A stretch of 64,000 nt of DNA from an uncultured Methanosarcinaceae archaeon (GCA_963733675.1 CAVTET010000003.1:604157-668156), one strand, 5' to 3'. Shown: positions 21,011-45,599, counted from the first letter of the stretch. Numbers and translations are program-made. The notes: a model not told the origin generated them from the sequence alone.

Positions 21011-21667
21011 AAAGCCTGATTCTGGCTTAACCATTAATAAGTTTTTGTTTGCGTTATTTTTATTTAGGCTTCATGACAATCCCAAATTGAAAACATTTGT
21101 TCATTGTTACGAATGTCAGGAATAATATTGAACTGACCCAGAAAATAAGCTTGTCACGAATCCATAATCCATGCCTTTTAATGAGTTTTTTGGAGTAAGT
21201 AGACTGGATATGGAATCTTCCTTACATTCCGTACTTAATTAGCTTTTAATCGATGATATCAAAGCAAATTTGCTTTTTTAGTCCTATTAAACGATGATAT
21301 CTGACAAAGATGTATCTTCTTCCAGTTAATGCCATATACATCAATAATTTCATTTGATATTTTTGCCTAGAATTACCCACAATTCACAAAAACTTAGTTT
21401 ATGTACTTTGATTAGAGTTAAATTCAAAATTGATGATCTAAATTTCAATGAACCTACTTCATAAACGGGAACAAAAAACATTATTTAAAGAAATTCTCAA
21501 ACTGTGAGTTCCATTCAAGATCTAGAACTCTTAAGGCTCTCTAGATAACAATCAGTCTCATGATGTTGTGGAGGATTTCCCTATATAATGCCTCGAGAAT
21601 ATCCAGTAGATTGATCTAAAATACCTAGTCAAAAATGGACTAAGACTCGAATTTGAGAGATCTTACT

Positions 21668-21758
21668 AGAGTATTTCGATAAGCTCCCTAATTTTGTACT
21701 TTGCTTATAAATGGTAAATAAATGATTCACGAAAATTAGAGGTTGATCAAAATCCTCA
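21668..21758. repeat. ~90-bp MITE-like repeat, copy D (reverse orientation)
   Basis: AGAGTATTTCGATAAGCTC ... AGAGGTTGATCAAAATCCTC. Confidence 0.75.
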
Positions 21759-22257
21759 CTAATTAGTACATGTTTTAGTACAAAAATATGTTAATCGAAA
21801 CAATACGTTTAGAACCAGAATCTAAAGCTGGCATATATTTTATAATATGTAAATTTGTTTCTTGATTCTCTTTTATTCATACGATACAAAGTTATATCTT
21901 TTGTTTTCGATATTTTCGCTCCTTCAGAAAAATATGTGTTTATTTGAATATTTTTATTAGAAGAACTAACTTATGTCCATTATTTTCCAAATGATAATTC
22001 AATTTGTTCATTTTAGGCAAGTATTTATGATCAGAAACAATATTTCCTCATATAATATATTACTTGACTATTAATCATCAAATAACATTTTTTGAGATTG
22101 TCAGTTTTGATAACCAATTATTATATCCTATAAATATACAAGTTGCCTTGAATATACGGATATGTAATTATTTGACGAAATGGTATTCTCACAGTGTGTC
22201 TATCGATAGAAAACATAAAAATGTATCAAATTAAGCAAAATTTTGGAGATGAAACAA

Positions 22258-22626
22258 ATGAGTAAGCAAAAACTTTCCAGAATAATTAATATTTTGATAG
22301 CTGTATTTCTCATAGTAACATTAACAGTTGCTTCAGCAAGCGCATGTTCTAGTAAGTCGGTCAAAAACTCAAATTCGGTTGATAACAATATCCCTGTCGA
22401 CTCGAATCCGGTTAATTACGAAAATCCCAGCAATATGAATCCGATTAGCAACATGAATCCAGTTAGCAACACGAATCCGGTTAATTACGGAAACCCCAGC
22501 AACATGAATCCGGTTAATTATGGAAATCCCAGCAACATGAATCCGGTTAATTATGGAAACCCCAGCAACATGAATCCAGTTAACGGAAACCTTGATAATG
22601 GGTTTAATTCTAACAGTTGGATTTGA
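22258..22626 (+). CDS. Small secreted Asn-rich tandem-repeat protein (shared-leader family member 1)
   Basis: Signal peptide MSKQKLSRIINILIAVFLIVTLTVASASA; 11-aa repeats NPVNYGNPSNM with synonymous variation between 33-bp units; GGAG RBS. Confidence 0.8.
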   Translation: MSKQKLSRIINILIAVFLIVTLTVASASACSSKSVKNSNSVDNNIPVDSNPVNYENPSNMNPISNMNPVSNTNPVNYGNPSNMNPVNYGNPSNMNPVNYGNPSNMNPVNGNLDNGFNSNSWI

Positions 22627-24049
22627 ACATTTGGTTTGTCAGCTATAAGGCCTATTGGGTTCTACAAAAAAATAATTGAAACAAGAGATTTTTTTATCAT
22701 TTTCTGGATTTTTGATTGAGTGCAGCCATTAGCCGGTATAATTAATTGCACATTTTGTCAATACCAGAAGATATTAAAAAAATCTCTGGAATAAAGAACT
22801 TTCATTATAGTCCTCAAAGTAAAAATGAAGATTTCAAAAACTTAGACTAATGAACTTATCTACAAGTAGACTTACTGGTATTTTCGCAAATTTGCTGTAA
22901 ATTCAAAGCTGAATTTTTGTATACTATCTGTAATTGGGTTCTTCAAAGGTGTGATTTCTACCCGCAAAATTTCTTTAGAGTTTTGATTTCAAAAAAAGAG
23001 ATCCACTTTCTTATACCCTCTCTACTAAACTTAAATGTAGAGACTTTCAGTTATTCCCTAGGTTTTGAAAATCTGTGCATTTTTTCAATTTGATCCAAAA
23101 TTTTGATATTTTTACTGGAATTATGTGGCAACACTGCAGAAATTTTGAGAAAATGTATCATTTTTACTAAAATAATTGTTACAGCATAAATCCAAAATGT
23201 TGCTGCCTTCAGACATTGAATAATATAATTTCTATAAATATTGAATGTAAATGTTATTAGAACATGTAGAAATTAAATTGCTCCATAACTACATCAACGA
23301 TAAAGCTCCATTGCTTCAAACGAGACACTCTATATAAATCCAAGTATATCACATTATTGGACCTTCTGGCAAATTACATTATTAACTTCGTCAGTGATTT
23401 ACTTGAACGTACTGGTGGTTGATGCGGGGATTCGGCTAAGAACCTTTAGAATACCTAATTATGGCATCTGAACAAAACTAGGGAAAACGTGGAAATGCGC
23501 ATACAGGTGTTTACACATGGAGATTATTTTATATGAGATACTAACTGAAAAACTTGTTATTTCATGGAAACAATACTCTTTCGTTAATGAAACAACACCT
23601 AAAGTCAATCCCTATATCTCTTCACAAGCTACAATCGTCAATTTCTCCTGAAATATATGCCCATAGTACTCAAGTCAATGCGCCTAAATCAGGATGAAGG
23701 ATATCAGCTTACAAGTGCACTCTGGAATGATTTGAAGTATTTTGCAGATATCGATTTATTACTTTTCAAGATGGATAAAGAAACAGTATCAATGGATGTT
23801 CACACACCATCCAATATGGATAGTAAACAGCTTGATTTCCATCTTATTTTTGGCACTTTTATAATTAATTGTGCCAATTGTAGACCTAATGCAGCACCGA
23901 TAAAGCATAGACCATTACGATTTGCCTCTGATTTTTATAAATTATTTATCTGTCACTCATAATCATATGACACAATTTAGGAGTTTGTCAAAATTCTCCT
24001 TGATTAATTTTTTTTTGTGTCCTTTGGATATGTGGAAATATTTTCGGAT

Positions 24050-24335
24050 TAGAAGATATTCAAAATATGGAAGAGAATCAAAGTATAAGTAATAGTACAA
24101 ATAATATCATTATACTGAGCCCAGTTGACAAAAATATTTAATGCAAATGATAATTGTGGACAATGTGTTAGATTTTTGGAAAATATGAATTTCAGGGATA
24201 CATACTTTCTTGGGTCATAATGAGTAAAGAGTCTACAACTAGTAAATATTCTTGTTGAACAACTAAAGAATACAATCGAATTTGATAATGGTTAGGGAAC
24301 AAGTTTCAAAATACTATTTCAGAAAAAAGACTAAT
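24050..24335 (+). pseudogene. Histidine kinase HATPase C-terminal relic
   Basis: LQLVNILVEQLKNTIEFDNG*GTSFKILF resembles Methanosarcina HisKA_2-type kinase ends; left boundary uncertain. Confidence 0.55.
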
Positions 24336-24371
24336 TCTTTTGAAGTTTATTCATTATAAAGGAGAGGTACA

Positions 24372-24782
24372 ATGAAAAAAGCAAAAATTCTGGTTGTCGA
24401 AGATCAGAGTATAGTGGCTCTCAACATCAGGAATAAGCTGATAAATCTCGGTTATACTGTGCCTGGTACTGCATCTACTGTAGAAGAAGCCATAAGAAAA
24501 GCGAAGCTGACAAATGCAGATCTTGTTTTGATGGACATTATGTTGAAAGGGGATAGGGATGGAATTGAAGCTGCCCGTGAAATCAAACAGCAACTAAAAA
24601 TCCCGGTACTTTATTTGACCGCATATACTGATGATGAGACTCTCGCTAGAGCAAAAACTACAGAGCCTGCAGGATATATCTCAAAACCTTTTAAGGAAGA
24701 AGACCTGCATATCAGTATAGAGATGGCTTTGCACAAACAGAGAATTGAAAGAGAAGAGAGCGATAACCTAGTTGATAATTAG
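24372..24782 (+). CDS. CheY-like single-domain response regulator
   Basis: ILVVED, LVLMDIML (phospho-acceptor Asp), LTAY, YISKPF. Confidence 0.93.
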   Translation: MKKAKILVVEDQSIVALNIRNKLINLGYTVPGTASTVEEAIRKAKLTNADLVLMDIMLKGDRDGIEAAREIKQQLKIPVLYLTAYTDDETLARAKTTEPAGYISKPFKEEDLHISIEMALHKQRIEREESDNLVDN

Positions 24783-24808
24783 TTTTTTAAACAAAGAGCC
24801 AAAAAAAC

Positions 24809-25663
24809 GGTTCCGTTGCAAAAAATCCTTTCTAATGATACAATAGAATAAAAAGAAAACCAAAGATAGTAGTATGCTATCTAATTCCTTTAAATGGAAG
24901 CATTATGAAGGAGAAATTATCCTATTGAATGTAAGATGGTACTTAAAATATCCATTGAGCTATAGAAATTTAAAGGGAATGATGATAGAAAGAGGAGTAA
25001 AAGTCGACCATACAACAATCATGAGATGGATACATCAATATTCCCCTGAAATCGAAAAGAAGATAAGAAGACATTTAAGACTAACAAACTATTCGTGGAG
25101 AGTTGATGAAACCTATATCAAAGTAAAGGGTAAATGGAAATATTTTTACCGAGCAGTTGACTCAAATGGAGACACAATTGATTTCATGTAAAGTGCAAAA
25201 CGAAACCAATAAGTAGCGAAGAGATTCTTTAAGAAAGCTTTGAGTTCTAATCATAATCAAATTCCACAAGTAATAACAGTTGATAAGAATCCAGCTTATC
25301 CACCTGCTATAGATGAACTGAAAAATGATAAAATACTACCTAAAAACGTAAACCTTCGACAAATCAAGTATTTGAATAACGTTATAGAACAAGATCATAG
25401 ATCTCTAAAGCAAATCGTTAATCCAATGTTAGGATTTCAGTATTTTCTATCTGCTAATAATACTTTAAAAGGAATTGAATCTATGAATATGATTAAAAAA
25501 GATAAGTCAATAATTTAAATTACTCTGTTTTTAATGAAGTCAAATACATTAATCAATTGCTTGGTATAGTTTCATAATGTTAGTACATTTTCTTTGAATA
25601 TTTTGATTTTTATTCATTACTCATAGATTTACATGCTTATTTTGAAATTTTTGCAACGGAACC
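24809..25663 (+). mobile_element. IS6-family element, second copy with disrupted transposase
   Basis: Same TIRs as 2175-3028; transposase split into 24874-25191 and 25240-25518; flanks show no direct repeat. Confidence 0.93.
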
Positions 25664-25989
25664 ATATTATGTCTAGCTTGATCATGCATTCCCATTCTTT
25701 TTCTATATTATTAGTTAGCAATATTCAAAGATTATTCAGCAAGATGTGGAATATTTATCTACCTTCGTTTGAGTGTTATAATGTATTAAACTTCTAATAT
25801 ATGTTCACTCAGTTTGATAGTTAAATTGATATAGTCATATATATAATCACAAAATTTGTAAGTTTCTTACTTATAAATTTATTTTTGATCAAAATTCGAT
25901 CTTATAGTCGTAAATGCATCAATTATTTTTTACCTGCTTTATATATAATCCGACAAGTTCCTCTATAAAATATCTAAACTACGTGTTGT

Positions 25990-26540
25990 ATGAATTCCGC
26001 AATAACTATACAGAACGTGGTGGCATCCGCTACGTTGGCTGAAGATTTAGATCTACCTAAGATCGAAGCTGGGCTGGAAGGCACCGAATATAACAAAATG
26101 AAATTCCCGGGTCTTGTTTACAGAATTAAGGATCCTAAGGTATGCTTTCTAATTTTCACCACCGGAAAAGTGGTATGCACCGGATCCAGGAACGTCGAGA
26201 ACGTCTACATAGCTATAACCAATCTAACTAATACGCTCAAGTCCATTGGCTGCGAAAGGATAGATACAAAACCTGAGATTCATGTTCAGAACATTGTAGC
26301 TTCCGCAGATTTGGATGCGCAACTAAACTTGAATAGTATTGTTATGGCCTTTGGCATAGAAAACGTCGAATACGAGCCAGAGATATTTCCTGGGCTTGTT
26401 TATAGGATTAAGGTTCCAAAGTTAGTAGTGCTCTCGGCTCTGGCAAGTTGGTGATCGCGGGTGGCAAAACTCCGGAGGATTGCGTGGAAGGTGCGCGGAT
26501 CATCAGGACAGAGTTCGACAACTTCGGATTGCTTTATTAA
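25990..26540 (+). pseudogene. tbp: TATA-box binding protein paralog, frameshifted near the C-terminus
   Basis: Two TBP repeats (QNVVAS...FPGLVYRI); terminal [11 protein letters not shown]...DNFGLLY continues in another frame after ~26433. Confidence 0.9.
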
Positions 26541-26621
26541 ATATATCCTAGAAGTCTGTAAACTCGTAACGGATGCCACATACTAAATTGGGAAGTACAT
26601 AAGAGAATAATAGGAAAAAAT

Positions 26622-26822
26622 ATGCATATAACCAACAAGACAGAAACAGAAGATACGATATTTGAATTTACACTTTCTCACTCCGGCTCACCTAGAGACC
26701 CATTCGACCAGACCCTAGTATGCATTTTAAGAGGAAAAGACGGCTTAGGCTTTGCAGAAATAGACATCTCCCAGATAATAACAAGAACAGGCAACTTTAA
26801 AGAAAGAAAAATATCACAATAG
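26622..26822 (+). CDS. Hypothetical 66-aa protein
   Basis: ATG with purine-rich upstream sequence; no recognised motif. Confidence 0.3.
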   Translation: MHITNKTETEDTIFEFTLSHSGSPRDPFDQTLVCILRGKDGLGFAEIDISQIITRTGNFKERKISQ

Positions 26823-28022
26823 TACATTGAAGAGCCAGGAAATAGAAAGCCTGGTGAAAATATAGTAAAGAACAAACAACTAAAATTATTAAAAATATGA
26901 ACCCGATTATTGAAAGTGGGCAAAATATAAAATATCTAATTAGGCGAGTTTTAAAAGAATAGATGGGGTAATCAAAGGAAATACTTTGTCTGTATTTTGT
27001 AAAATCTGGCTGGACATGTCTTTCTTCAACCTGTGATTCTATCATTAAAGATTTTATGGAAGTTGGGTATGACAAAGACGAAAATGAATCCGTTTATAAC
27101 CACAATAAAATTCTTCACTGTTATTTTTGGGGCTCTGGTGGTCGTGATTATGGCCGTTTTCAAAATGCTATTGAGAAGACAGACTCGAGATAAAAGTAAA
27201 TTCCTTTTTCTTTGTTTTTTGTCTTATTTAATCCTGTTCGGACTTTAGCAGGCCTGGTGGGATGCTCGGATAAAAACAGTAAGTAAAGACTTTTCCTAAA
27301 ATGAGAATAGAAAACTAGTAATTATATTTTTTTTTGCAGCTGGAATAAAGCAAGCTTAAGATAAAAAAGGATGAAGGGCAAGCCAGAGGACAGGCCAGAT
27401 AATCCAATAGTTTTATTGGAAAACAACAGTATATTTAAAGGCCATTTATAAATCTATTTTAATAAAACATGTGTAAAACAGATCCTTTTCAGCCGAAAAT
27501 ATCCGAATATCAGCTAAAATCTCCCAAAATACAGAGTTTTCATCACAAAAAAAACTGTGTATTAATGAACCAATATAAAGTAATAGTAAAACTCACAGAA
27601 CAGAACGAAATAATGCTGAAATCCAATATATTCCCTTTATTTGATAAAGTGCTACTTTTATTGCAAACTATATCAACGATAATTCAAATACAATCCAATA
27701 AATGGTACACTAGAATGCACTGGTAAATTTCTAATCTGTAGCTGGACAAGGTCTAAACTAAAATACAGATGGTAAAAAAGCATACTTAAAGGATCGGAGA
27801 AAAAGATGCATGAATCATGTTTTTTCGATTGTAATGTTTTGATTTATAAGTGAATTTCATTTTTATTTCATATGGACCTAAGTTTAAATGATAATAAAAT
27901 ATAGCCATCAATTCAAGCAATTTATCAGAAATTCATTTATTATGCCTTGAAAAGATGGCTATGATGCTATTTCATTTTGTACTCACCAGCTCCAGACTCA
28001 GCGACTGTGCTCGTTAGATCCG

Positions 28023-28364
28023 TCAGTGATGGCCGTGGCCATGACCGTGACCGTGGCCATGATGGTGGTGATGGTGGTGGTGATGGTGGTGCCAGTGATG
28101 ATAACTGTCCCAGTATCCATCTCCATCGTATCCGTAGCCATATCCGGCTACTACAACTGGTTCAACTGCAACTGGTTCTGTATAATAACCACCATAATAA
28201 CCATCTCCCCAGTACCCGTGATGATGGTGATAGTGATGATGATGTCCATGGCCATGGCCATGCGGAGCAGCAACAGCTGCCATAGCTGTCATTGATGCCA
28301 CAAAAAGAACTGCTAGCAAAATAACCAATATCTTTTTTATTTTACTAGATGTTTGTTTCAACAC
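28023..28364 (-). CDS. Small secreted His-rich protein (shared-leader family member 2)
   Basis: GGAGTGA RBS; signal peptide MLKQTSSKIKKILVILLAVLFVASMTAMAAVA; about 30 His in the 81-aa mature part. Confidence 0.85.
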   Translation of the reverse strand: MLKQTSSKIKKILVILLAVLFVASMTAMAAVAAPHGHGHGHHHHYHHHHGYWGDGYYGGYYTEPVAVEPVVVAGYGYGYDGDGYWDSYHHWHHHHHHHHHHHGHGHGHGHGHH

Positions 28365-28669
28365 TTATTTCACTCCTTTATGACTAAAATTGATAATTGT
28401 ACTGGAATTTTTTCTTGGTAACTATTCAGGCTACAAAGAATTGATTGGTTGACATCTATTCTATTACGTCAACTACTTTTGATGAACTACATTACTTATT
28501 GAGTTTGTTAGTTATTTAAAATTAATTATAAAAAAAATAGCTTCTGAATAAAACTTCTTTTCCCATAAAATATTTTAACATTGGACTATTATTTAATATT
28601 AATATTGTTTTATTAAAAAGTAGGATGTTGAGCCAATATTTTTGCTGACAAAATTTCATTTTTTGTTGT

Positions 28670-28740
28670 TTGGGTTAAGTAGTTTCAAGTGCTCCATAAG
28701 CTCCACATGCTCTATAAGTTACATAAGCTCCATGAGTAAC
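28670..28740. repeat. Partial copy of the repeated element (TAGTTTCAAGTG anchor plus 9-bp periodic array)
   Basis: Units CTCCATAAG/CTCCACATG/CTCTATAAG/TTACATAAG/CTCCATGAG. Confidence 0.8.
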
Positions 28741-29063
28741 AGATATGTATCTGGTGTGTATCCTTCCAGTGAATCTTGATACTAAGGGTTGAAATAACGG
28801 TATACTCTAAATTGTTTTAAACTTTCACCTTTTTTTCTTTCCAACTGCATAAATCCTATCATATTTCTTTTATTGAGATGCAGATGTACTTTTTAATATC
28901 ATAGACTTTTTTAGACATACTTATTTATTTATAGCCCCCTTGTCTTATAATTAACGTGGTTTCTAATTATACTGATATACATAACATTAAAAAACCGTTT
29001 ATTTTGGCACTTGGCCTAGTGCATAGTAAAAATATCAAAATAATATTTAAAAGACGGTCTATT

Positions 29064-30218
29064 ATGGAAATGAAGTATAAAGTATTCTTTCTATTAATCA
29101 GCATGATTTTATTGTCGGGGACTGCACTTGCAACATCTCTGACCTTGAAATCTGTTTCACAGCCTTATTACATTGATCCACAGCATAATTTATGGCTCAA
29201 AGTCAACATGAATGGCAGCACACAACATTTCAATGCGTACAATACGCCTGGTTATTCTCCCAATGGAGATATAGTCATGTGGGCATACGATAATTTTAGC
29301 TCCGGCAGCTTAAATACATCAAAGTGGACAGCTTACAAAGAAGGAAGCAATAAGTCAACAGTAGAAATACAAAATGGATATTTGGTGTTGTCAGGCTCTG
29401 GTAACACATCTTCTGCGAACGTTGTGCTTAATAAGCCATTTACAAATGGCATCGAATTGGCAGTAAATGAAACATTAGCAGGGGGTACTAATGATGTTGG
29501 CACATTTACTGATGCTTCTTTTGGTGCAGGTACACTCGTAGGTGGGATAAGGGGAACAGATTGGTGGTACACAAGATTCGCTACAGGTGGGGGCTCATTC
29601 CAAAGCCAGGGAATATATAATGCGATGATTTGGGCAAACTCAAACAGTTCGGATGTTAGTATGCCCACTCCTGGAATCAGATTAAGTGATTACATAGAAG
29701 AGGGTATCCCACATACATTGGCATATAGTTATGATGCTTCTGGTAATGCAAATATGTACATGCTAAATATAACTCAAAATCGTCTCCCTTTATCTATACC
29801 TGATCCATACGGATATAACCAGTTCAATCACCCATCTCAAGATACTCTAGGGGCTTGGACTGTGTTTTACATTCAAGCAACTGAGAAAAATGGTGTATGG
29901 AAAGTTGGAGAGTTTACAACTCCCCACGCACCACTTATGGCAATCAAAAACACACAATATCTTTATACCCCAAAACAGTGGGTGCTATCACAAGGCGATT
30001 CACCAAAAAGTCATGGAGTCAAAAGAGAAATCAATGAAGTTTGGGGATATAAAACAGGTCACACACCAAAAATAAACGCAAAAAATATGGGAACATATAC
30101 TCAAATTGATGTTAAGCCAACCGATTTACAAAACGTGTCTAATTACCAGGTAATGATCCCTGCTAGTATGCTTAACATATCATCAAAGAGCGAGTCTCTG
30201 GATGTAGAGCGTGCATAA
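29064..30218 (+). CDS. Secreted beta-rich protein with DUF2341-like motifs
   Basis: Signal peptide MEMKYKVFFLLISMILLSGTALA; YYID..LWLKV, NGDIVMWAYDNFSSGSLNTSKW and NYQVMI segments; family call tentative. Confidence 0.6.
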   Translation: MEMKYKVFFLLISMILLSGTALATSLTLKSVSQPYYIDPQHNLWLKVNMNGSTQHFNAYNTPGYSPNGDIVMWAYDNFSSGSLNTSKWTAYKEGSNKSTVEIQNGYLVLSGSGNTSSANVVLNKPFTNGIELAVNETLAGGTNDVGTFTDASFGAGTLVGGIRGTDWWYTRFATGGGSFQSQGIYNAMIWANSNSSDVSMPTPGIRLSDYIEEGIPHTLAYSYDASGNANMYMLNITQNRLPLSIPDPYGYNQFNHPSQDTLGAWTVFYIQATEKNGVWKVGEFTTPHAPLMAIKNTQYLYTPKQWVLSQGDSPKSHGVKREINEVWGYKTGHTPKINAKNMGTYTQIDVKPTDLQNVSNYQVMIPASMLNISSKSESLDVERA

Positions 30219-30569
30219 GTGCAAAAATGTTAGGATATTATAAAATATCTTATTATAAAATAACCGCATGTTGTGAAGATAATCAGGTATAATGCTGCTG
30301 TTAAAGTGTCTGGTTTACCATCATTTTCATCCATTTTTTTCGTTCCGTGACATGACTATTATTCAGCACTTAATCGAAGATGTATGGTAACTTTTTACAA
30401 CATGTCATTATTGCCTTTTCGGATAGGTTTTTAGAGAAAAACAAAAAGTAAAGTTATTTTGGAACGTTATTTATATTGACTAAATTAATCCACTTAAGAG
30501 TCGAAGATGTTCCCCCATCTCCAGAAGTCTGTGAGCTTGGAGATGAGATGAGTCTGGATATGCTGGTGT

Positions 30570-30911
30570 TTATGTAGCTGGTTTTGTTTCTGGATCTTTT
30601 GATGCTGTTTCTGGAAATAGAGTTGCTCCTGCAAGATTTGGACTTGGATCTGAAGCTTTTGCGGGCTCTGCAGGTGCTGAAGCATTCACTGTGTATGGCA
30701 TTCCACCGTATGAAGGACAAATCCAATTACCGTTTACCCATACACAACCAGTACCATAGCCCCAGTAAGGATGAATTCCCCAGCCCCAAACGCCACCCCA
30801 GCGACCGCCGCCATGTGCACTAACTGCCACTGTTGTCACAGATAATACAAAAAGTACTGCCAGCAAAATGGTCAGTATCTTTTTTAATCTACTCACTTTT
30901 TGTTTCAACAT
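30570..30911 (-). CDS. Small secreted Gly/Trp-rich protein (shared-leader family member 3)
   Basis: Signal peptide MLKQKVSRLKKILTILLAVLFVLSVTTVAVSA; GGRWGGVWGWG, CVWVNGNWIC, Pro/Ala/Thr-rich tail. Confidence 0.8.
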   Translation of the reverse strand: MLKQKVSRLKKILTILLAVLFVLSVTTVAVSAHGGGRWGGVWGWGIHPYWGYGTGCVWVNGNWICPSYGGMPYTVNASAPAEPAKASDPSPNLAGATLFPETASKDPETKPAT

Positions 30912-31482
30912 TCAACTCATTCCTTTCTTGTTAGGTTTGATACAATCTTAATCTGGCTAGAAAACAATTTGTTGAGATCGGAGGTTTATTTTAACTTTCA
31001 TATGACTGTATGATAAACTTGTATTTAATATTTTTCTTTTATTTAATTATATTTTATGCTATTAAAATTAAAAATTGTGTTATTTACTCCAAAAAAAGAA
31101 TTTAGATATGTTACTGATTGAACAATCATTCGTCCAAATCAATTAAATTAAAAACTCAAAAATGTTGATATTTTACAGATGCTATGCCAGAAAAAATTTC
31201 GGAAAATATTGAGATTATCGATGTCCAGGTTTTTCTTACCTGGCTATCGAAAATATTTACACTTACAAGCCAACAAAAGTTTGTTAATATCAAGTAGGCA
31301 GTGTACTAGAGTTCTGCAAATTTTGAATGGTTATATGCCCTTTATTCATTACTTGTTCTTATTCATGGACCTAATTATCATTACAATTTACATTTTGACT
31401 CAAAATGCAATGCTTCTCTTGGATCTATGCAAGATGGGAATAAAGCTAAACTTATGAATAAAATTAAAAATTGTCCGAAAAA

Positions 31483-31510
31483 GTAATATAAAAATATATA
31501 TATGTAATAC
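31483..31510 (+). promoter_or_regulatory. Candidate NikR operator upstream of nikM
   Basis: GTAATA-N16-TAATAC resembles E. coli NikR GTATGA-N16-TCATAC and encloses a TATA-like run. Confidence 0.5.
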
Positions 31511-31626
31511 TTGACAATCTGTTTTCATAAGAATATTCTATCACTTACGAAGTTAGACTAATACCCGGTCAGAATAAGAATTTCAGCTTAGAACCATAGG
31601 AAATTAGTTAGGGGAAGATAGAATAA

Positions 31627-32352
31627 ATGCACATTCCAGATGGATATTTAGGGCCGCACACATATATTGCGTTTTGGATCATCGTGATCCCGATATGGTA
31701 TTATGCAGGACAAAAACTGAGCACAGAGCTCAAGTCCAAACAGGTACCACTGCTAGCATTATCAGCTGCGTTCTCATTTGTAATAATGATGTTCAACATC
31801 CCTGTTCCAGGTGGCAGCACAGGCCATTCCATCGGCGGTGGAATTCTCGCCATAGTCATAGGTCCCTGGGCAGCAATTATAGCTATATCTGTAACTTTGG
31901 TATTGCAAGCAATGATTTTTGGTGATGGTGGAATAACAGCCATAGCCACTAACTGCTTTAATATGGGAGTAGTAGTACCTTTTGTCGCTTAGTATGCCTA
32001 TAAGCTTATTAGCGGAAATTCAGAGATTACATCTTCTCTAAAAGTTATTGCTGCGGCTATCGCTGGCTGGATTTCTTTGACCATGGCATCTTTTTGTGCG
32101 GGCATTGAATTAGGAATACAGCCAATTTTAGAGCACACAGTTGATGGAGTCCCACTTTATATGCCATATACATGGAATGTAACTGTTCCTGCCATGGTAC
32201 TTGAACACGCTTTGGCATTTAGTATTCTTGAAGCACTGATTACAGCAATTATTTTTGCCTATATCCTGAGAACAGATACATCTGTATTTTACGGAGAGAA
32301 ATCTGAAGCTGAAATTAACAGAACAGAAATAATGAATGGAGTCACAATCTGA
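31627..32352 (+). pseudogene. cbiM: ECF Ni/Co transporter S-component (CbiM/NikM) with a single in-frame TAG at 31990
   Basis: MHIPDGYL N-terminus and PGGSTGH; frame stays open after the TAG to 32352. Confidence 0.88.
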
Positions 32353-32361
32353 GGTGAGAAT

Positions 32362-32685
32362 GTGGATAAGATGATAAGAAACTTATCTATTGGCCTGATA
32401 TTATTGATCATATTTGCGCCTTTATGTCTGCTTGCGGCAGGCACTGCATATGGTGAATGGGTACCAGATGAGCTTAAGGACCGTATCGGGTTTGTGCCAC
32501 ATGGGTTGGAAGAGCTCTCTGATTTATGGCATGCACCACTGCAGGATTATAATATCCCCCCCACTCCTTCTTTTAAGGATTCGAAGCTGGTATCTTCTGC
32601 TGGATACGTTTTGTCTGCAATAATCGGTGTAATAGTTAGTGGCGGTTTTTTATATTTAATTGGAAAGAAGGCAACTAAACACTAA
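32362..32685 (+). CDS. NikN/CbiN-like PDGLE-domain membrane protein
   Basis: TAYGEW, VPHGLE, APLQDY motifs with two TM segments; GAGGTGA RBS. Confidence 0.82.
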   Translation: MDKMIRNLSIGLILLIIFAPLCLLAAGTAYGEWVPDELKDRIGFVPHGLEELSDLWHAPLQDYNIPPTPSFKDSKLVSSAGYVLSAIIGVIVSGGFLYLIGKKATKH

Positions 32686-33402
32686 CAAATTAATCACGTT
32701 TAGAATCATGATGATCCAAATTTTAATTTTTTTAGGACGGAACTTAGATATATTGGGTATAAAAAGGCTCAATTACTTGATTTAATTGTTGGATTTACTG
32801 CATGCACGAAAATTGGATATATCATGAATAGAGTAGGCATAATATTGTGCCAATTTTAAAAATAGTAGATTGGAAGGATGGAGTGATAAAACCCTTCCAT
32901 AAAGCATGGTATTTTATTTTAGAAACCTGAAACCTGCAGCTGCCTAAACTATAGATACGGAATTCCATCACCATAGGTTCGATGGCTAATTTCAGATTGT
33001 CTTATTTTCGATATCTTTTGGATAGACATATGAATGTATAAAGACTTCATATTTAACATTTTCTTTTGTTTTTTTCATATTTTATATTATTAGGCTTAAA
33101 ACTAATATTACTCATTTTATTTTAAGTCAACCATTATTTCAATTTACTTTAGTTTCTGAATTATTATTCCTCACATATTATAAATCAATGTTTAAATATA
33201 ATCTAATAAGTGGATATTTAATTATACTAGTTATTATATAACGAAGTATAATTATAAATATACTTACTTCCATTTATTTTTTAAGATAGACTATTTAAAA
33301 TCGTAACGATTTTTACCAACGATTTGAGATTGGGAATAAATGGAAAAAATAACAGCCTTATAGAAATAATACAAAGTGAGAACAATTTTGGAGTGTATAT
33401 AT

Positions 33403-33732
33403 ATGGGGAAACAAAAATTTGACAGAATGAAAAAAACACTTAGCATTCTAGTGCTAGTCTTTTTAGTAGTATCAGCGACAGCTGTTGCAACTAGTGCAGC
33501 ACCACGTAATGGTGGTTGGTCGTGACGGTGGTTTTGGTCATGGTCACGGTAGTTATGGCGGCTTTGGCGGTGGCTGGGGACCTGGCTGGGGAGGACCTGG
33601 GTTCGGATTTTATCCACCTGCTCCCATGGCGATGGCGGAGATAGTGATGTAGTCTGCGGACCTTATGGCTGCTTCTGGAATGAGGCTACAGCATACATTC
33701 CGAAGGCTATCATAGCCGATAACGGTTGGTAA
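33403..33732 (+). pseudogene. Secreted Gly-rich protein, frameshifted (shared-leader family member 4; absent from ORF track)
   Basis: MGKQKFDRMKKTLSILVLVFLVVSATAVATSA, then GRDGGFGHGHGSYGGFGGGWGPGWGGPG and CGPYGCFW in shifted frames. Confidence 0.78.
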
Positions 33733-33889
33733 AAAAAGTGTTTTTTCGATGACTATAAAGCTTAAGTATTAATATAAATTAAAAACCCTAATATTTGTAA
33801 ATAAAACTATTGGCTTTTCATTAATTTCAGAGAAGGACAAAATAATAAGTGCTGTAGAAAACTCAAATGAAACAGAGCAATACAGATGA

Positions 33890-34250
33890 CCTTAAGGAAT
33901 GTCATTATTGCCCTGAAAATTAGGTGACCAACTCCTTTTATTATCCATGGAGATAACATCTATCAACATGAAATTAACAACAATAAAATATTTATTGTGT
34001 AATTAGTGAAAAAATCAACCAGATGCTTATATACTTTTCTGTTCTGAAGTTTTCTTTCTATGCTTGTGGTTTAGTTAATTAGTTTCAAGTGTTCCTGGAG
34101 CTCCAAATGTTCTAAAAGTCCCATAAGCTCCAAGAGTCCCAAAAGCTCCATGAGTCCGAGATCGATAAGGTTTTCTTACTATTGATGGCATTTAGGAAAT
34201 CCAGAGATTTAATCACAAAAACTGTGCCTATTTCTCATAACAGTCAAAAA
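33890..34250. repeat. Repeated ~350-bp non-coding element, full copy 1
   Basis: Colinear similarity with 37860-38340; hairpin at 33921-33962; 9-bp periodic array at 34081-34157. Confidence 0.8.
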
Positions 34251-34387
34251 TAAGGGTTGTGAGGCAAAAATAATATTTATGTAGTTTGATACTGCAATTC
34301 TTACCTTTGTGTACTTTTTTTCGGTGGTGAGAATGATTCACTTTCCTATTTGTGATGTTTTTCACTGGTTTTATTAAATAGCCAGAT

Positions 34388-34403
34388 TTTTTGCAACGGA
34401 ACC
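34388..34403. mobile_element. Solo IS6 terminal inverted repeat
   Basis: TTTTTGCAACGGAACC identical to the ends of the IS6 copies. Confidence 0.65.
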
Positions 34404-34766
34404 CATATTTTTAATTAAAACCAATGCAATACCTGAAAAGCAAAAAATTTCTATATTCATATCCTTCGTGTTTTACAAATTTAAACGTAGAATCTGAAAA
34501 ATAGCTATTTTCTCAAAAAGGTTGCTATTCAGACAACTGAAGAAACAACTATGCTTTTGATATTAAAAAAATCAATAGTAATCGTATTTCTTTTACTGAT
34601 TTCTATTATCTTGGCATTATCAGATTAACTTCTTTTTCCATGCTATATTTTGTTTTAAGAACGCTGCAAACACGAGATTCAGACATCCAAAGAGTTAAAT
34701 AATATTAATAAAATAAAAAATTTTGGAAATACTACACTATTAATAATTGACAAGGTGTGAAATTAC

Positions 34767-34899
34767 ATGAGTAAAGCAAAAAAGACACTTGTTATTCTAC
34801 TGGTAGTTGGTTTTTTTACTATCAGTGACATCTGCAACAGCAATCGCAAAAGGTGCAAAAGGCATTGGCGTAGCGATCAAGTTCGTCACGAAAGAGTAA
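34767..34899 (+). pseudogene. Leader-only relic (shared-leader family member 5) joined to an MsrB-like C-terminus
   Basis: AGGTGTG RBS; MSKAKKTLVILLVVGF[+1 T]LLSVTSATAIAKGAKG then GVAIKFVTKE*. Confidence 0.62.
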
Positions 34900-34905
34900 G
34901 GAAAC

Positions 34906-35601
34906 ATGTTCTGGTTTAAAGGAGGCTTTTTGATGCCAAAAATATTTATTCTTGCTCCTGCAACGCCCCACGCTTGCAGCATTGCAAACGCAAGCGCCAA
35001 AACATTGCCCGACATAGTGTACGACACGTCTTTGGTACAAAGTGTTGGAACCGCATTTTTCTCGCAAACCAGCATCGTCCTGGCTGGAGGTTGTTTTTGG
35101 GGTATCCAAGCCGTGTTCCAGCATGTCAAAGGTGTGATTGACGCTGTATCTGGCTATGCAGGAGGGGCAGCGGATACGGCACATTACGAAAGCGTTGGCA
35201 CCGGCAAAACAGGTCATGCAGAGTCGGTACAAGTGACGTATAACCCTGCGCAAATAACACTCGGGCAAATACTGAAAGTGTTTTTCTCGGTCGCTCATGA
35301 TCCCACTGAGCTTAACCGACAGGGTCACGACCACGGAACACAATATCGCTCAGCGATATTCTATTCGACTCAGGAACAGAAAGAAGTTGCTGAAGCTTAT
35401 ATTGACCAATTGCAACAAGCAAAAATATTTAAGGCTCCAATTGTAACCAGGTTGGAGCCTTTAAAGGCTTTCTACCCAGCTGAGGATTATCACCAAAACT
35501 ATGCAAGGTTTCACCTGTCTGATCCCTACATTGCGATCAACGATATGCCGAAATTGAAAGCACTTGAGAAAGAGTTTCCCAATCTTTACATAAAACAATG
35601 A
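34906..35601 (+). CDS. msrA: Peptide-methionine (S)-S-oxide reductase MsrA, bacterial type
   Basis: AGGCFWG, GKTGHAESV, HDPTELNRQG, AEDYHQNY motifs; start may be 34933. Confidence 0.95.
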   Translation: MFWFKGGFLMPKIFILAPATPHACSIANASAKTLPDIVYDTSLVQSVGTAFFSQTSIVLAGGCFWGIQAVFQHVKGVIDAVSGYAGGAADTAHYESVGTGKTGHAESVQVTYNPAQITLGQILKVFFSVAHDPTELNRQGHDHGTQYRSAIFYSTQEQKEVAEAYIDQLQQAKIFKAPIVTRLEPLKAFYPAEDYHQNYARFHLSDPYIAINDMPKLKALEKEFPNLYIKQ

Positions 35602-35690
35602 GTATGTTCAATGTTGTGCGAGCTTTCGTCGAAGGAGTCGGGTTGATCCTGACGTCTTGCACTTGCCGATTTTGCGATCATTCTGGCACG
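35598..35690 (+). pseudogene. 5' fragment of a DipZ/CcdA (DsbD-family) gene
   Basis: ATGA overlap with the msrA stop; MFNVVRAFVEGVGLILTSC, then LPIL and IILA after single-base shifts. Confidence 0.55.
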
Positions 35691-37005
35691 AAGTTAAAAG
35701 TCCAATGAAATTTATGACCTTATCAAAACTTGTAGTTATGTACCTTACATAGAATTATCTAGCAGGTATAATCAGATGAATGGACTATGCAGGGGCCTGA
35801 TGTCCCTGATTATGATTTTGAAACTAAATATGAATTCAGTTGTGGCAAATCTGAAATAGCTGATATGAAAATTTTGAAACATCATATAGTCAAATGTATT
35901 GAATTCGTGAAAATTCCAGAAAATCGATACGAAAGAGTTGGCTATATTAAGTATCATGATTCTAAGGTAGAGTCTTCACATCTGAAGCCGTGAGCATCCT
36001 ACATTAGAATCGTGAAAATGAGAGCTATCTAGTATTAAAGATACAAACGGAAAAGAAAATTGGACTGGGAAAAAGCTCGTTTATTTAAAATTAAATTGGG
36101 CTGCATTTGACGATACTTCTAAGTTGTAAGTAGGTAATAGTGCAAAAAATTGTAATGGAAAGTCGACGTAAAGAAAATACATATTTTTATTTTAAAAACT
36201 CTGCATTAGTAAAAACGACAAATTCTGTTCTTTGTGTTGAAGACTAATTTGGTAGTCCATTTATTCGTTATTGATAAGGCCTTAACACTTGAAGTACATA
36301 ACCTGTAACATTACACTCTCAATTTTAAAATTTTAGCGAGTTCTCATGGTCAACTTTCTAGGATTACTTAAACTAATCTCATATAAAAAAAGTAGGTTTT
36401 ATTTCTCACAACCTAAACCTGGGGTTTTCATGGCATAGCTGATCGATTTAATTATTTGTTTTTAAGTGTTGAATCTCAAATAATCATTTTTTAAATTTTC
36501 CCTTAAGGTGTTTCCAGTAATCCTCATACTTTTGCTCTTCAAGCAAGTATTCATTCAATCTTAACTCAAGAAGTTCAGGGGTCATTCTTTGGAACGACTG
36601 TTTGTGATTTGTCTCTGACATAATTTCTTAACATCTCCGAAAAGATTATCCTGTACCCGTGTTAAAAATAAAATAGTTGAAATAATAAAACACAATCAAA
36701 TATGCATCACATATTTCTCTTTATTAGATTGTGACCCAAGTTGAAGTAAGAGAACTTAACTAGGAGTTTAAAGAGTTAATTTTGAAATTATAGGTAATTA
36801 CTCCTGTCAGGATGCAATGCCTATATCTCCAACCAGTTTTTTAATTTTATTAATTGTTTCTTTTCATTTCTCATCACAAATACGATTACCCAGTTAAACA
36901 AGACTTCCTGTCGATTGTCCCTATAGATTCACATGTTACTCTGAAAGATCAGTTAGTTACATTCAATTTTCAGTTTTGGTGTTGTTAACCTGGATGTTAT
37001 TCACT

Positions 37006-37695
37006 TTATAATTGTTCACCTATAAATTGTCCATCTTGGTTTTGCCCACTTGGGTATTTCCAGCTTTGGTGTTGTTTATTGGAATGTTTTACGCCTTTGT
37101 GTAGCTCACCGGAGTATTTTGAACTGGGTGTTGCGGGTGCAAAAGATCCATATGTCGCATCGGTTATTAAACCGGATGTTGCAGGTGTTGCTAAACCATG
37201 TGTTCCTGTAGCTGGTTTTGCGCCTAATGGTTTTGACCACCCTGTTTTTGCTCCACTTGGGTACTCCTCACCTTGTTTTTGTTCACCTTGGTTCTTTCCA
37301 TATGGGAATTTTCCGCCTAGGTGTTTACCTGGGAATAGTTCTATATCTGAGAATTTTCCGTTTAGGTATTGTTCACCTGGGAATAGTCCACCTGGGAATA
37401 GTCCATCTGTGAATTGTTCACCTAGGTATTGTTCACCTAGGAATAATTCACTTGGGAATTGTTCGTCTTGGTTTTGTCTACCTTGATTTTGTCCGTTTTG
37501 GTCTTGTTTACCGGAGTATTTTTCACCTTGGTGTTGTTTACCGATATGTTTTTCGCTTTTGTGTTGTTCACCTGAGTGGTGGTGTTTTATTTCATCTGCG
37601 GCGCTTACTGCAGTAGCTGTCATTGAAATTATTAAAAAAAATACTACTAAAATAGCTAGTGCATTTTTTCTTCTTTCAAATGCTTGTTTTCTCAT
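37006..37695 (-). CDS. Secreted protein with GEQxx-type 5-aa repeats (shared-leader family member 6)
   Basis: Signal peptide MRKQAFERRKNALAILVVFFLIISMTATAVSA; 15-bp periodic coding repeats; GGAG RBS. Confidence 0.8.
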   Translation of the reverse strand: MRKQAFERRKNALAILVVFFLIISMTATAVSAADEIKHHHSGEQHKSEKHIGKQHQGEKYSGKQDQNGQNQGRQNQDEQFPSELFLGEQYLGEQFTDGLFPGGLFPGEQYLNGKFSDIELFPGKHLGGKFPYGKNQGEQKQGEEYPSGAKTGWSKPLGAKPATGTHGLATPATSGLITDATYGSFAPATPSSKYSGELHKGVKHSNKQHQSWKYPSGQNQDGQFIGEQL

Positions 37696-37859
37696 TTAAT
37701 ATAAACTCCATATTTTGTCTGAAATATATTGTATTGATACTTATGGTATAAACTGGTATAATAATATTACACAGTATGGTTTATATAAGCCTTTTTTATT
37801 TCATTTTCTAGCAATACAGAGATTAATTATGACAAAAAGAGGAAGAGGCAATAATAGTA

Positions 37860-38340
37860 ACCTAAAGATAAATCACTATTACCTTGGAAATTAGGTGATC
37901 ACACTTCTAAATTATACCTGGAGATCACATTTACCGACATGAATTAACAAAAATAAAATATTGTTTGTGTAGTTAGCAAGGTAATCAACCCGATGCTTTA
38001 AAACCTATTTTTTCCTAACTGTCTTACTCGTTCTGCAACAGACTGGGCTATTTTTGTTCTTAATTGGAAAGAAAAGATACAGAATCAATCCTATTTTACA
38101 GAACTTTAGGTACACTTACAGATCTATATAATTATTTTTCCCTTATTTTTCTATTTATGATGGTTGTTTAGGTTAATTAGTTTCAAGTGTTCCATAAGCT
38201 CTATATGCTCTATAAGTCACTAAGCTTCATAAGTGCCAGAAGCTCTATGAGTCCATAAATCAACAATGCTTTCTTATTACTGATTGCTTTTAGGAAATTC
38301 ATAGATTTCATTACAAAACATATGCATTAATCATCAGACA
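37860..38340. repeat. Repeated non-coding element, full copy 2 (with ~130-bp internal insertion)
   Basis: Colinear with 33890-34250; hairpin at 37892-37933; anchor TAGTTTCAAGTG at 38178. Confidence 0.8.
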
Positions 38341-38462
38341 ATAAAGAAAAATCATAAACCAGGTTGGAAAATTTGATAATGTCCGCTCACTCGTTAAGTT
38401 CTTCAAAAAGGGCAGGAAACTTCTTTTTTAGTGGTATGAAGAGTTTTTCGTCTAATTTAGTA

Positions 38463-38833
38463 TCATAAAATTGTTTCCACTTTAAAAAGTTGGTCAAGTG
38501 ATAATCCGTAAGCTTCTACAAGGAAAGCTGCTTCAAGGTTAGTCTTCTTAAGATTGGTCTTCTCAAGGTTAACTTCCACAAAGTAAGCGTTTTTAAGTTT
38601 AGCTTCTTGAATGTCTGCTTCTTTAAGGTTAACCCCTTTAAGGTAAACCCACTGAAGATTAGTCCCCACAAGATTAGCTTTTTTAAGGCAAGCTCCATAA
38701 AAATTAGTTTTTATAAGCTTAGCCCCCTCAAGGTTAGTTTCTCTAAGATTAGCTCCTATAAGATTAATTTTTTCAAGGTTAGCTCCTGTAAAATTAGCCA
38801 TTGTCAAATTAGACTCTAAAAAATTCGTTCTTC
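38463..38833 (-). pseudogene. Pentapeptide-repeat protein, 5'-truncated by IS5
   Basis: Serial (A/T)NLxx repeats run up to the IS5 terminus. Confidence 0.85.
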
Positions 38834-38836
38834 TAA

Positions 38837-39707
38837 GAGCCTATCCGAAAAATAATATACTTTCAATTTAAGATCATTTGTGGTAATGACAAAACTGAAA
38901 ATTGTTCAGGACTACGAAATTTCTGAAGATTATTGGACAAAAATAGAACCTTTACTACCTGTACCTAAGCCAAAAAAGAAGTCTGGAAGACCTAGAAAGG
39001 GTGACAGGGAAATAATGAGTGGCATCTTCTATCTCCTTGTTACTGGTTGCCAATGGAAAGCATTGCCACGATTTTATGGAGCCCCAAGCACTGTACATGA
39101 TCGATTTCAGGAATGGCAACTATCAGGCTTACTTGAGAGCATGTGGCTGGCTGGTCTTGTTGAGTATGATTTCGAAAAAGGATTAAGAATGGGAATGACA
39201 ATCAATTGATGGTGCTATGACAAAAGCACCATTAGATGGAGCTGGAACAGGAGCCAATCCTACTGATCGTGGCAAAAAAGGTACAAAAAGGAGTGTTTTA
39301 ACTGATGGTAAAGGCATACCACTTTCTGTTGTCGTTGATGGAGCCAATCGTCACGATAAAAAGCTTGTAAAAAGGACTTTAGACGCCATATTCTTTGAAA
39401 GACCTTCTCCAGAAGACATAATTCAGAATATATGCATGGATAAGGGTTATGATTTCACAGATATCAGAAAATTGGTTGAAGACTATGGTTATACTGCGCA
39501 TATCAAAAGTCGTGGAGAAGAAAACATAAGAAGGTACATACCTGGTTTTAGGGCAAGAAGATGGGTTGTAGAAAGGGCACATTCTTGGTTGAATAGATTC
39601 AGAGACTCCTTATAAGATGGAAAAAGAAAATTGAAAATTACCTTGCTATCCTACATTTAGCGTGCGCATTGATAACTTCAGATCAGCAGGACTTTTCGGA
39701 TAGCCTT
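38837..39707 (+). mobile_element. IS5-family element with disrupted transposase
   Basis: TIRs GAGCCTATCCGAAAA / TTTTCGGATAGCCTT, TAA on both flanks; TGCQWKALP, DKGYD, RWVVER; ORFs 38880-39209 and 39217-39615 with frameshift and stop. Confidence 0.92.
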
Positions 39708-44645: not shown

Positions 44646-45599
44646 GTTCTACCTCAGGATAAAAGTGAAGCAAATGCATGAAATTACTCGTAAAATAAAT
44701 TACACTTTTTTAAAAAAATGGTAGTTTTTAAAATACTTATTTTCCCATAGGTAATTCGAAATTTTATAACCATGGAATAAGGTGAAGAAACTATTTTTTT
44801 ATTTCTTTTTTCCGTTTTTCTATGGTTCAAATTTGTATTCAAGTTTAATAGAGAGATGTATATCTTCGACTATAAATCCATTTTTATAAGTTATTGAAGT
44901 GTAATTCTCACTATATGTCCTATAATGTTACTAATTAATATAATTTAAATATCATGTAATTTTAATTATATCCCCTCAAAATTCGGACGGAGCTAATCTT
45001 CAGAATACTAATTTTAAAACATGCAAGAAGATAATCCTAAATTTAATTATCATATTATATTCATCAGATCAACTCCGTTATAAATATAACTTTTTATAGA
45101 TATACCTTATTATCAGTAAGAAAGGTATTAAAGGATAAAATAAGAAAAAAATTTTCATACGCTTGCTGAAAAAGGGAGAATTTTTCCACAATAAAAGCTC
45201 CCGCCTTTTTATCCTTTATCTACTTTAAATAGACAACATTTCTTGAATTAAAAGTGAGTTTCTTGGGACAAGAGATTGAAGTATTTTCTAGCGTGGTATA
45301 TGATGACAAAATGTAAATATAAACTAAATTATTATTTTGAAAGAAAGAGATTTTAACCATAACAGCATAGTGATAGCTTATTGTCGATCTATAAGCTAAG
45401 ACTTCATCATGGAGAAAAAATAATAAGTTTTCCCTAAAAAGAATACATTTCAAAAAGGAAGCTGAAGTTCCTAGGTCAAATAAAACTGATTTTCGGATCT
45501 TTATACATAATAATATCTTTTTCGCAGGAAAAACCCTTGCATTGAAAGCTTTTTTTATCGATGCAGGGCTATGCCCCCTGAACGAGAGGAGGAAAAGCG

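Follow-up and report, generated by a model that had tools for sequence, protein, structure and literature searches.

Conserved export signals that head otherwise unlike proteins are known from several lineages. The YSIRK and KxYKxGKxW signal types of Gram-positive cocci carry wall-anchored or serine-rich glycoprotein cargoes, KxYKxGKxW with the accessory Sec system, and in cone-snail toxins and the antimicrobial peptides of amphibians and insects a signal that is conserved even at silent sites precedes hypervariable mature parts. On the side of metals, NikK and NikL are accessory components of the NikMNQO/CbiMNQO nickel/cobalt energy-coupling factor (ECF) transporters, and Hpn and the His-rich loops of ZnuA and ZrgA are histidine-rich and bind metal. 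Here we analyze a 64,000-nucleotide (nt) stretch, called the window below, from an uncultured Methanosarcinaceae archaeon (GCA_963733675.1 CAVTET010000003.1:604157-668156), in which leader genes 1 to 6, with start codons at 22258, 28364, 30911, 33403, 34767 and 37695, have in common a leader of 32 residues that is nearly invariant, while the exported parts are widely different. An earlier note, made from the sequence alone, had taken these genes for a local six-gene system. The ORFs (open reading frames) and leaders lie where it had placed them, and its leader alignment agrees with the consensus that we obtain from 24 leaders, but instead of six local genes we find ~93–103 copies in the genome and a multigene family that spans the genus. 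The leader's bearers form a very large, apparently undescribed Methanosarcina family. We think it likely that the leader is a Sec-type export module, specific to the genus, that is reused on envelope proteins with fast turnover, and the family's products would come to lie beneath or on the S-layer after export.

The genome (3.92 Mb) was searched as 62,576 stop-to-stop six-frame ORFs of at least 30 aa. A profile made from five of the window leaders matches 93 of them at E<=1e-3, of which 79 reach E<=1e-5 and 26 reach E<=1e-10, a 24-leader profile (A1) gives 103 matches in this genome, and a profile of 22 leaders taken from five other species only (A5) gives 94. Of the 93 loci, 85 have a start codon and a recognizable leader end, and 76 of those have a cargo of at least 15 residues; several are short or fragmentary. 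Within the same genus, A1 has matches in 17 of 18 and 18 of 19 genomes (two sets) and A5 in 56 of 58 other genomes. The A5 counts are 0–33 in each of 54 congeners and 87–118 in the other four (G153, G162, G165 and G166), like this genome, and for these four and this genome they may be floors, as 134 candidates were scored. In a subclade to which this genome belongs, the leader family has grown about five- to ten-fold. The leader is restricted to the genus: in other genera of the taxonomic family, 10 of 101 genomes have one or two weak A1 matches each (E 2.4e-5 to 6.9e-4), and none of 12 genomes from other families of the order has a match to A1.

Among 1.84 billion public cluster representatives (50% identity), 653 have a match at E<=1e-3, and 77 of these reach E<=1e-10. 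Of the best 150 public matches, 148 are at most 150 aa long, and in 137 of the 152 leader matches in those 150 proteins the leader begins at residue 1–3. A word-index protein search on the leader region returned 18 matches, hypothetical or unnamed, and neither Pfam nor NCBIfam has a family of its own for the small leader proteins above cut-off. No curated family was found, nor any description of the leader family in the literature searched, including passages of PMC9124975, PMC4158269, PMC11456600 and PMC3361143; supplementary small-ORF lists, such as that of PMC11456600, may list members.

The leader is distinct from the ordinary signal peptides of the same genomes. When the leader profile is applied to 553 signal-peptide-like N-termini, picked by a simple heuristic that also admits some membrane proteins, the scores are bimodal: 480 fall below 10 bits, 7 lie at 10–20 and 66 reach 20 or more. 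Among those 66, 55 belong to proteins of at most 150 aa, whereas candidates of more than 300 aa number 73, and 70 of them stay below 10 bits. Ordinary secreted proteins, a set of six ORFs (three papain-type proteases with PKD, a YncE-like beta-propeller and two DUF2341-like proteins, one of them at 28956-30218), score -0.9 to 4.8 bits, compared with ~40–68 for members. Because this genome has only one partial DUF1608 match, the S-layer comparison was made with congeners, and the DUF1608 S-layer proteins of four of them, one being a close relative, reach -1.6 to 6.3 bits. In M. barkeri, residue 25 is the first of the mature S-layer protein (PMC3361143), and the signal of the Methanosarcina S-layer protein is shorter than this leader and differs from it. 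Both ordinary secreted enzymes and S-layer proteins, the two classes against which the earlier note had asked for the leader profile to be compared, therefore fall far below the members.

The consensus of the 24 leaders in A1, MLKQxxxRMKKVLAILLxVLFVVSLTAVAASA, has a long basic n-region (M-[LG]-K-Q-x3-R-x-K-K), a hydrophobic core (x-L-x-I-L-L-x-V-L-F-V-x-S-x-T-A) and a small-x-small end (A-x-S-A). K3 is invariant, K10 is present in at least 90% of these leaders and R8 and K11 are the majority residues, which gives the charged n-region of a Sec signal; the core is uncharged, small residues stand at -3 and -1, and Ala32 is found in 37 of 40 members. The leader has the layout of a Sec-type signal peptide with a predicted cut by signal peptidase I, and the family most likely uses the general Sec route. 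A Tat motif (S/T-R-R-x-F-L-K) is absent from the consensus, which has a single Arg, and no Tat family is among the window Pfam matches; RR occurs only in gene 6 and its paralogue, without hydrophobic context. Nor is there a class III (prepilin/archaellin) signal, as the junction reads K-K-V/T-L without Gly, Ala or Ser at -1. A minority with Cys at +1 has the layout of a lipoprotein signal. Among the 152 leader matches in the best 150 of the 653 public clusters, Cys is at +1 in 19 and His in 20. By eye, Cys is at +1 in gene 1, whose leader ends in a lipobox-like ASASA followed by Cys, and in its paralogue on contig C5, and the other five window genes lack it; the automatic cleavage rule, which places the gene 1 cut two residues earlier, finds Cys at +1 in 0 of 85 members of the genome.

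Conservation ends at codon 32, with a sharp drop at the predicted cleavage site. In 40 non-redundant canonical leaders, the information per nucleotide at codon positions 1, 2 and 3 is 1.03, 1.32 and 1.02 bits in the leader and 0.20, 0.29 and 0.19 bits in the next 18 codons, and the 30 nt ahead of the start codon have 0.49 bits. The earlier note's statement that similarity stops at the cleavage site is borne out by these values, and together with the family searches they uphold its broader idea of a secreted family defined by a leader that is far more conserved than the cargo.

This conservation extends to silent sites. The summed synonymous-codon entropy is 22.5 bits, compared with 48.5 +/- 0.7 expected from genome codon usage, and 0 of 2000 simulations were as low, in a comparison that overstates independence because the family copies are related. 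Despite this kinship, the silent sites of the leader are more conserved than the adjoining untranslated region. Minor codons are fixed at L2 (TTG, 22 of 23), S7 (AGT, 17 of 18) and R8 (AGA, 26 of 27), and other species have the same codons at Q4 (CAA, 28 of 30), I15 (ATT, 27 of 28), V19 (GTC, 19 of 23) and V30 (GTA, 16 of 16). Since alifold gives no consensus structure for positions -40 to +99 in 72 sequences and the mean z of single folds is -0.4, the silent-site conservation does not come from structured RNA. Rare-codon bias is known in bacterial signal peptides, and conservation at the nucleotide level might here be due to gene conversion among leaders, to codon selection for targeting, or to both.

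The genes are mosaics of upstream-plus-leader modules and cargoes. TATCAA, which the earlier note had reported before four genes, is indeed found upstream of four of the six, and family-wide it occurs at -60 to -20 in 18 of 86 members compared with 52 of the 1423 upstream regions used as controls; an extended version, TGTAT[CT][ATG]A, is found in 15 of 86 members and 8 of 1423 controls, and the translation signal GGAG[TAG]G at -16 to -5 in 39 of 86 members and 2.4% of controls. The gene-proximal ~140 nt of the gene 2 upstream module are present at about 10 loci, all of which have a leader gene, and the cargoes there differ. By blastn, the module has 71 hits, 9 of which extend to a start codon followed by a leader ORF, and its distal part, ~140–250 nt before the start codon (query 55–165 of 307), is a dispersed repeat. 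Eight loci have 230–330 nt of upstream DNA and the leader in common and then diverge completely at the leader end, with a cytochrome b5 domain (PF00173), His-rich tracts and Lys-rich repeats among their cargoes. Gene 2 itself is 90% identical to C1:663377 upstream and 87% in the leader, with an unrelated cargo, while its cargo matches that of C1:165203-165646 at 60 of 81 residues and the latter gene has a different upstream module; the 104 upstream matches of this second pair are background (300 random pairs: mean 102, maximum 118). The same conflict is seen across 61 members (1830 pairs), with similar upstream regions defined as at least 140 of 200 matching: 29 of 50 similar-upstream pairs are without cargo homology, and 14 of 52 cargo-homologous pairs have upstream similarity at background. 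Because the relationships of upstream-plus-leader and of cargo conflict, we conclude that promoter/upstream-plus-leader modules and cargoes have been recombined.

Most cargoes are ~10–120 residues long, lack a Pfam domain and have a high content of G, H, W, Y and P. In the cargoes, W (2.7-fold), G (2.5-fold) and H (2.4-fold) are enriched, as are P and Y, and L, R, E, I, F and K are depleted. The earlier note had called each mature part a different simple polymer and the cargoes unrelated. This does not hold throughout, as there are subfamilies with conserved mature domains, such as the relatives of genes 3 and 4, and domain-bearing members: Pfam matches above cut-off are absent in 17 of 20 scanned members, and the other three are cupredoxin, thioredoxin and cytochrome b5 proteins. 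A Cys-bounded Trp motif (C-x-W...W-x-C) is present in 9 of the 76 cargoes and His at +1 in 11. The products of C13:23560-23880, C5:12989-13231 and C7:90252-90988 end in C-x-W-x-W ... W-V-x-x-C after a His/Asp/Asn-rich tract. This Cys-bounded Trp-rich motif may be a small disulfide hairpin common to otherwise unalike cargoes. The ESM Atlas gave only scores <0.8. Cargoes would turn over fast by slippage, frameshift and replacement, and the leader, in subgroups together with the promoter and 5′ region, is retained nearly intact.

RNA-library contigs of at least 93% likeness lie at 22569-22860, 30504-30869, 30563-30827, 34740-35508, 36565-37396, 37309-37641 and 37376-37734, thus on genes 1, 3, 5 (with msrA) and 6. 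They come from four libraries of three studies, from soil and peat, and give neither strand nor ends; window stretches that they leave uncovered are not taken as evidence. The contigs agree with expression of these genes, the lack of which the earlier note had named as its other ground for refutation.

The protein families found repeatedly within 4 kb of these 93 loci are transposases, CbiM/PDGLE/CbiN, TPR proteins, beta-propellers, sensor kinases and unannotated proteins. Among these recurring neighbors there is no modifying enzyme, leader peptidase or dedicated transporter of the kind that accompanies ribosomally synthesized and post-translationally modified peptides or bacteriocins (single-copy neighbors were not annotated), in keeping with the earlier note, which had seen no exporter or modifying enzyme nearby. 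When the ORFs within 4 kb are clustered, 8 of 10 CbiM (1.4 expected), 4 of 5 PDGLE (0.7) and 3 of 4 CbiN (0.6) paralogue ORFs prove to lie that close to a member, an enrichment that is inflated for CbiM by segmental duplication. The duplicated cassette consists of a leftward gene of the gene 3 type followed by rightward CbiM, PDGLE and a gene of the gene 4 type. It is present in the window, on C13, on C5 and on C1 near 1,008 kb; near 356 kb on C1 there are a split CbiM, a split PDGLE and a gene 4-type gene without the gene 3-type gene. Gene 4 has the same place behind PDGLE as its counterparts in four other cassette copies, and the CbiM-PDGLE-leader order is also present in G162 and G166. The gene 4-type subfamily is found in only 5 of 58 other congeners. 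No CbiQ or CbiO was seen beside the inspected cassette copies, and a genome-wide search for them was not made. Complex prediction for CbiM, PDGLE and a mature AEQGW-type protein gave a score of 0.00, which speaks neither for nor against binding. Because of the His enrichment and the CbiM-PDGLE neighborhood of genes 3 and 4, we infer that His/Gly-rich members bind divalent metals, and we read the tie of the family to nickel/cobalt uptake as real but partial. Metal capture is the only one of the earlier note's suggested functions to have gained support, which is indirect; matrix, adhesion and antagonism gained none.

Table 1. Positions of the leader genes and associated features, counted from the first base of the window
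Feature	Position	Strand	Remarks
Leader gene 1	22258..22626	+	122 aa from ATG; E 2.4e-12 to 5-leader profile
Leader gene 2	28023..28364	-	113 aa, GTG start
Upstream module of gene 2 (promoter + 5′ region)	28365..28671	-	
Leader gene 3	30570..30911	-	113 aa
CbiM (Ni/Co ECF substrate component), starts MHIPDG	31627..32352	+	two ORFs here; Pfam PF01891, E 1.4e-40 and 5.8e-05
PDGLE-domain protein (NikN-like partner of CbiM)	32362..32685	+	Pfam PF13190, E 3e-09, above cut-off
Leader gene 4, pseudogene of subfamily ending ...AEQGW/AENGW	33403..33729	+	frame broken twice
Leader gene 5, short leader ORF	34767..34899	+	one extra T in T7 run 34811-34817
msrA (peptide methionine sulfoxide reductase)	34906..35601	+	directly behind leader ORF 5; Pfam PF01625, E 1.6e-59
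Leader gene 6	37006..37695	-	229 aa; E 3.2e-17 to 5-leader profile
Motif TGTATCAAA	upstream region of leader genes		

Of the six leader genes in Table 1, gene 4 is a pseudogene and gene 5 is frameshifted. The cargo of gene 1 consists of N/P/S-rich repeats, and its paralogue is at C5:78912-79208; that of gene 2 has 81 His/Gly/Tyr-rich residues, and that of gene 6, with a paralogue at C3:543272-544000, has 197 residues rich in Q, G, K, E and H. In a six-sequence alignment, the mature part of gene 3 runs from an HGGG..W/G-rich section through C-x-W-V-x-G-N-W-x-C-P to a conserved Pro/Ala-rich tail, and relatives at 70–81% identity are present in Methanosarcina metagenome-assembled genomes. Gene 4 has one TGA and one TAG within its match to an intact paralogue; its intact relatives have a conserved mature part in which YPPAPYG and CGPYGC are invariant in 21 of 21 sequences. 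Read through, gene 5 would give the leader plus 17 cargo residues, with a TAA two codons ahead of the msrA ATG. Its counterpart in G166 is intact, with 49 codons and the end TGA TAA, and the frameshift is also present in G152. Because the RNA-library contig at 34740-35508 spans gene 5 with 0 gaps, the extra T cannot be put down to an assembly error in this genome alone. We also considered pyrrolysine read-through that would fuse this leader ORF to msrA and ruled it out, since the stops are TAA, TGA and TGA TAA, never TAG.

An Rfam search of 21500-38500 found nothing relevant. At 24794-25682 there is an IS240-family insertion sequence with a split transposase ORF, an element with well over 100 copies genome-wide at ~90–95% identity, and the many broken genes fit the unusually heavy insertion-sequence load of this genome. 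The 420-aa protein encoded at 28956-30218 is secreted and matches DUF2341 weakly, below threshold. Its family comprises at least 10 paralogues and has a conserved signal peptide of its own (MEMKYK...), and parts of the 28956-30218 ORF move with the CbiM cassette in segmental duplications. About 10 CbiM paralogue loci are present in the genome, several split into two ORFs, and an intact paralogue, L064, matches PF01891 at E 2.4e-58. Beyond gene 6, a pentapeptide-repeat-like ORF (38463-38807) and a split DDE transposase, IS5-like by eye (38880-39615), flank the region. Contig C13 (50 kb) has the highest density of leader genes, with 8 in 50 kb, and carries repeated small genes without Pfam match that look mobile-element- or virus-like by eye (e.g., 20738-21694 and 45057-45883); a phage-integrase family gene recurs near members elsewhere (L077, contig C1).

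Several findings weigh against an export module reused on envelope proteins, or against its extension to metals. The kinship of the copies weakens the codon simulation, as noted above. RNA libraries can carry DNA, so the contigs agree with expression and are no proof of it. Many copies are short or broken, which may mean that the family is in partial decay here. The cassette copies are segmental duplicates at 85–92% identity and are therefore not independent events. CbiM-PDGLE lies within 1.5 kb at only 2 of 17 AEQGW-subfamily loci of other species, ~70 members have no metal gene nearby, and His makes up at least 8% of the residues in only 18 of 76 cargoes. The uncharged stretch that follows K10-K11, at ~21 residues, is also long enough to stay in the membrane, so that the leader might be an uncleaved N-terminal anchor, with low-complexity tails tethered to the membrane's outer face. 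The AlphaFold model of an AEQGW-subfamily member (mean predicted local distance difference test score 54) fits such an anchor, as its only confident part is residues 2–32, a single helix. However, the small-x-small end with its Ala32 is conserved and conservation stops exactly there, Cys occurs at +1 in part of the public matches, as in lipoprotein signals, and the Methanosarcina S-layer signal, though different and shorter, is removed (PMC3361143); we therefore consider an anchor improbable. That the leader is simply the usual signal peptide of the organism, which would make the six-way resemblance trivial, has in its favor that the leader parts fit the n-h-c plan of Sec signals, but it is contradicted by the bimodal scores and by the ordinary secreted and S-layer proteins at no more than 6.3 bits, and we give it almost no credence.

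Another possibility is that the conserved 96 nt are mainly repetitive DNA that forms one end of a mobile or recombining element, with many of the ORFs as by-products. Silent sites are indeed conserved, the genome is full of insertion sequences, many leader copies are truncated or frameshifted, and the flanks hold dispersed repeats of 53–82 loci each: the intergenic repeats 33752-34240, 34241-34425 and 37833-38335 occur at 80, 82 and 73 genome loci, and 27 of the 80 loci of the first and 21 of the 73 of the last lie within 1 kb of a member, both above the genome share. A repeat of this kind is very unlikely, however, as codon position 2 is the most conserved, the sequence always begins at a start codon behind a strong Shine-Dalgarno sequence at fixed distance, the frames are open for 40–230 codons and include cupredoxin, thioredoxin and cytochrome b5 proteins, and the leader is kept across nearly all congeners and has RNA-library contigs on members. 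We find it similarly hard to believe that the cargoes are antagonistic, archaeocin-like peptides akin to animal toxin and antimicrobial-peptide families. The small size, the conserved leader with variable cargo and a Gly/His-rich composition like that of some antimicrobial peptides would suit antagonism, as would matches to YxzE-like bacteriocin (E 5e-4) and lactococcin 972 (E 0.013), but these matches are under the curated cut-offs and overlap the leader in part, genes for immunity, processing or export do not recur in the vicinity, the depletion of K, R and L is unlike cationic amphipathic peptides, and some cargoes are redox or metal domains. The export-module reading could also be taken further, to a recombining promoter-plus-leader cassette in which gene conversion keeps the 96-nt leader uniform as a joint for new coding sequence, and in which the His/Gly-rich members by CbiM-PDGLE are extracellular Ni/Co-capturing partners of ECF uptake in sulfidic habitats. 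New sequence, from slippage-born repeats to whole redox or metal domains, would then be joined to a promoter, ribosome site and export signal that already exist. We regard this fuller proposal as speculative and on the whole doubtful.

The reused export module matters in several ways. Methanosarcina species are the main model methanogens, and the space between membrane, S-layer and matrix is poorly known in them; the family would place there, in each genome, tens of small exported proteins that carry no annotation, a number that rises to about a hundred in a soil and peat subclade. As a precise archaeal targeting signal, the leader could be used to tag proteins for secretion in M. acetivorans, M. 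mazei or M. barkeri, and its silent-site conservation and mosaicism make it a good case for studying the constraints that export signals put on codons and the origin of new secreted genes. If the cassette proposal were true, Methanosarcina would have a built-in way to invent and shuffle envelope proteins, and if His/Gly-rich members do capture Ni/Co, this would bear on the trace-metal supply of methanogens that limits methane under sulfide. The trace-metal need of methanogens where sulfide is present is described in PMC10617489.

Compared with the described systems, the leader is most like YSIRK and KxYKxGKxW in being a lineage-restricted, Sec-type signal with an n-region motif of its own and with unrelated, often repetitive exported parts. 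Unlike here, those signals are bacterial, have another motif and carry large cargoes, and no accessory exporter recurs near the leader genes; the YSIRK, KxYKxGKxW and ESPR profiles have no match among the window proteins at E<=1 or among 20 further members at E<=1e-3. TIGR04207 (halo_sig_pep), found on haloarchaeal surface glycoproteins, is likewise a conserved, lineage-specific archaeal signal among paralogues, but its best scores here are 13.2–17.0 bits compared with a cut-off of 24.6, it belongs to another phylum, and its cargoes are large glycoproteins. The superfamilies of cone-snail toxins and antimicrobial peptides are similar in being large and fast-expanding, with many pseudogenes and with mature parts that diverge or are replaced; they are, however, eukaryotic, with propeptide processing and antagonistic roles, whereas some cargoes here are ordinary redox or metal proteins. 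The likeness to NikK/NikL, as small extracytoplasmic or membrane protein genes beside nikM/cbiM and nikN, is one of gene order only, in a duplicated cassette and in two other species. With Hpn, ZnuA and ZrgA the family has HGG/HHH-rich low-complexity tracts in common, but the matches (ZrgA E 5.7e-4, ZnuA E 0.02) are far under cut-off and composition-driven, and here there is an export signal and a composition that is mostly Gly/Trp/Tyr-rich as well. Set beside these systems, the family is marked by an archaeal, genus-specific export leader that combines silent-site conservation with mosaic reuse.

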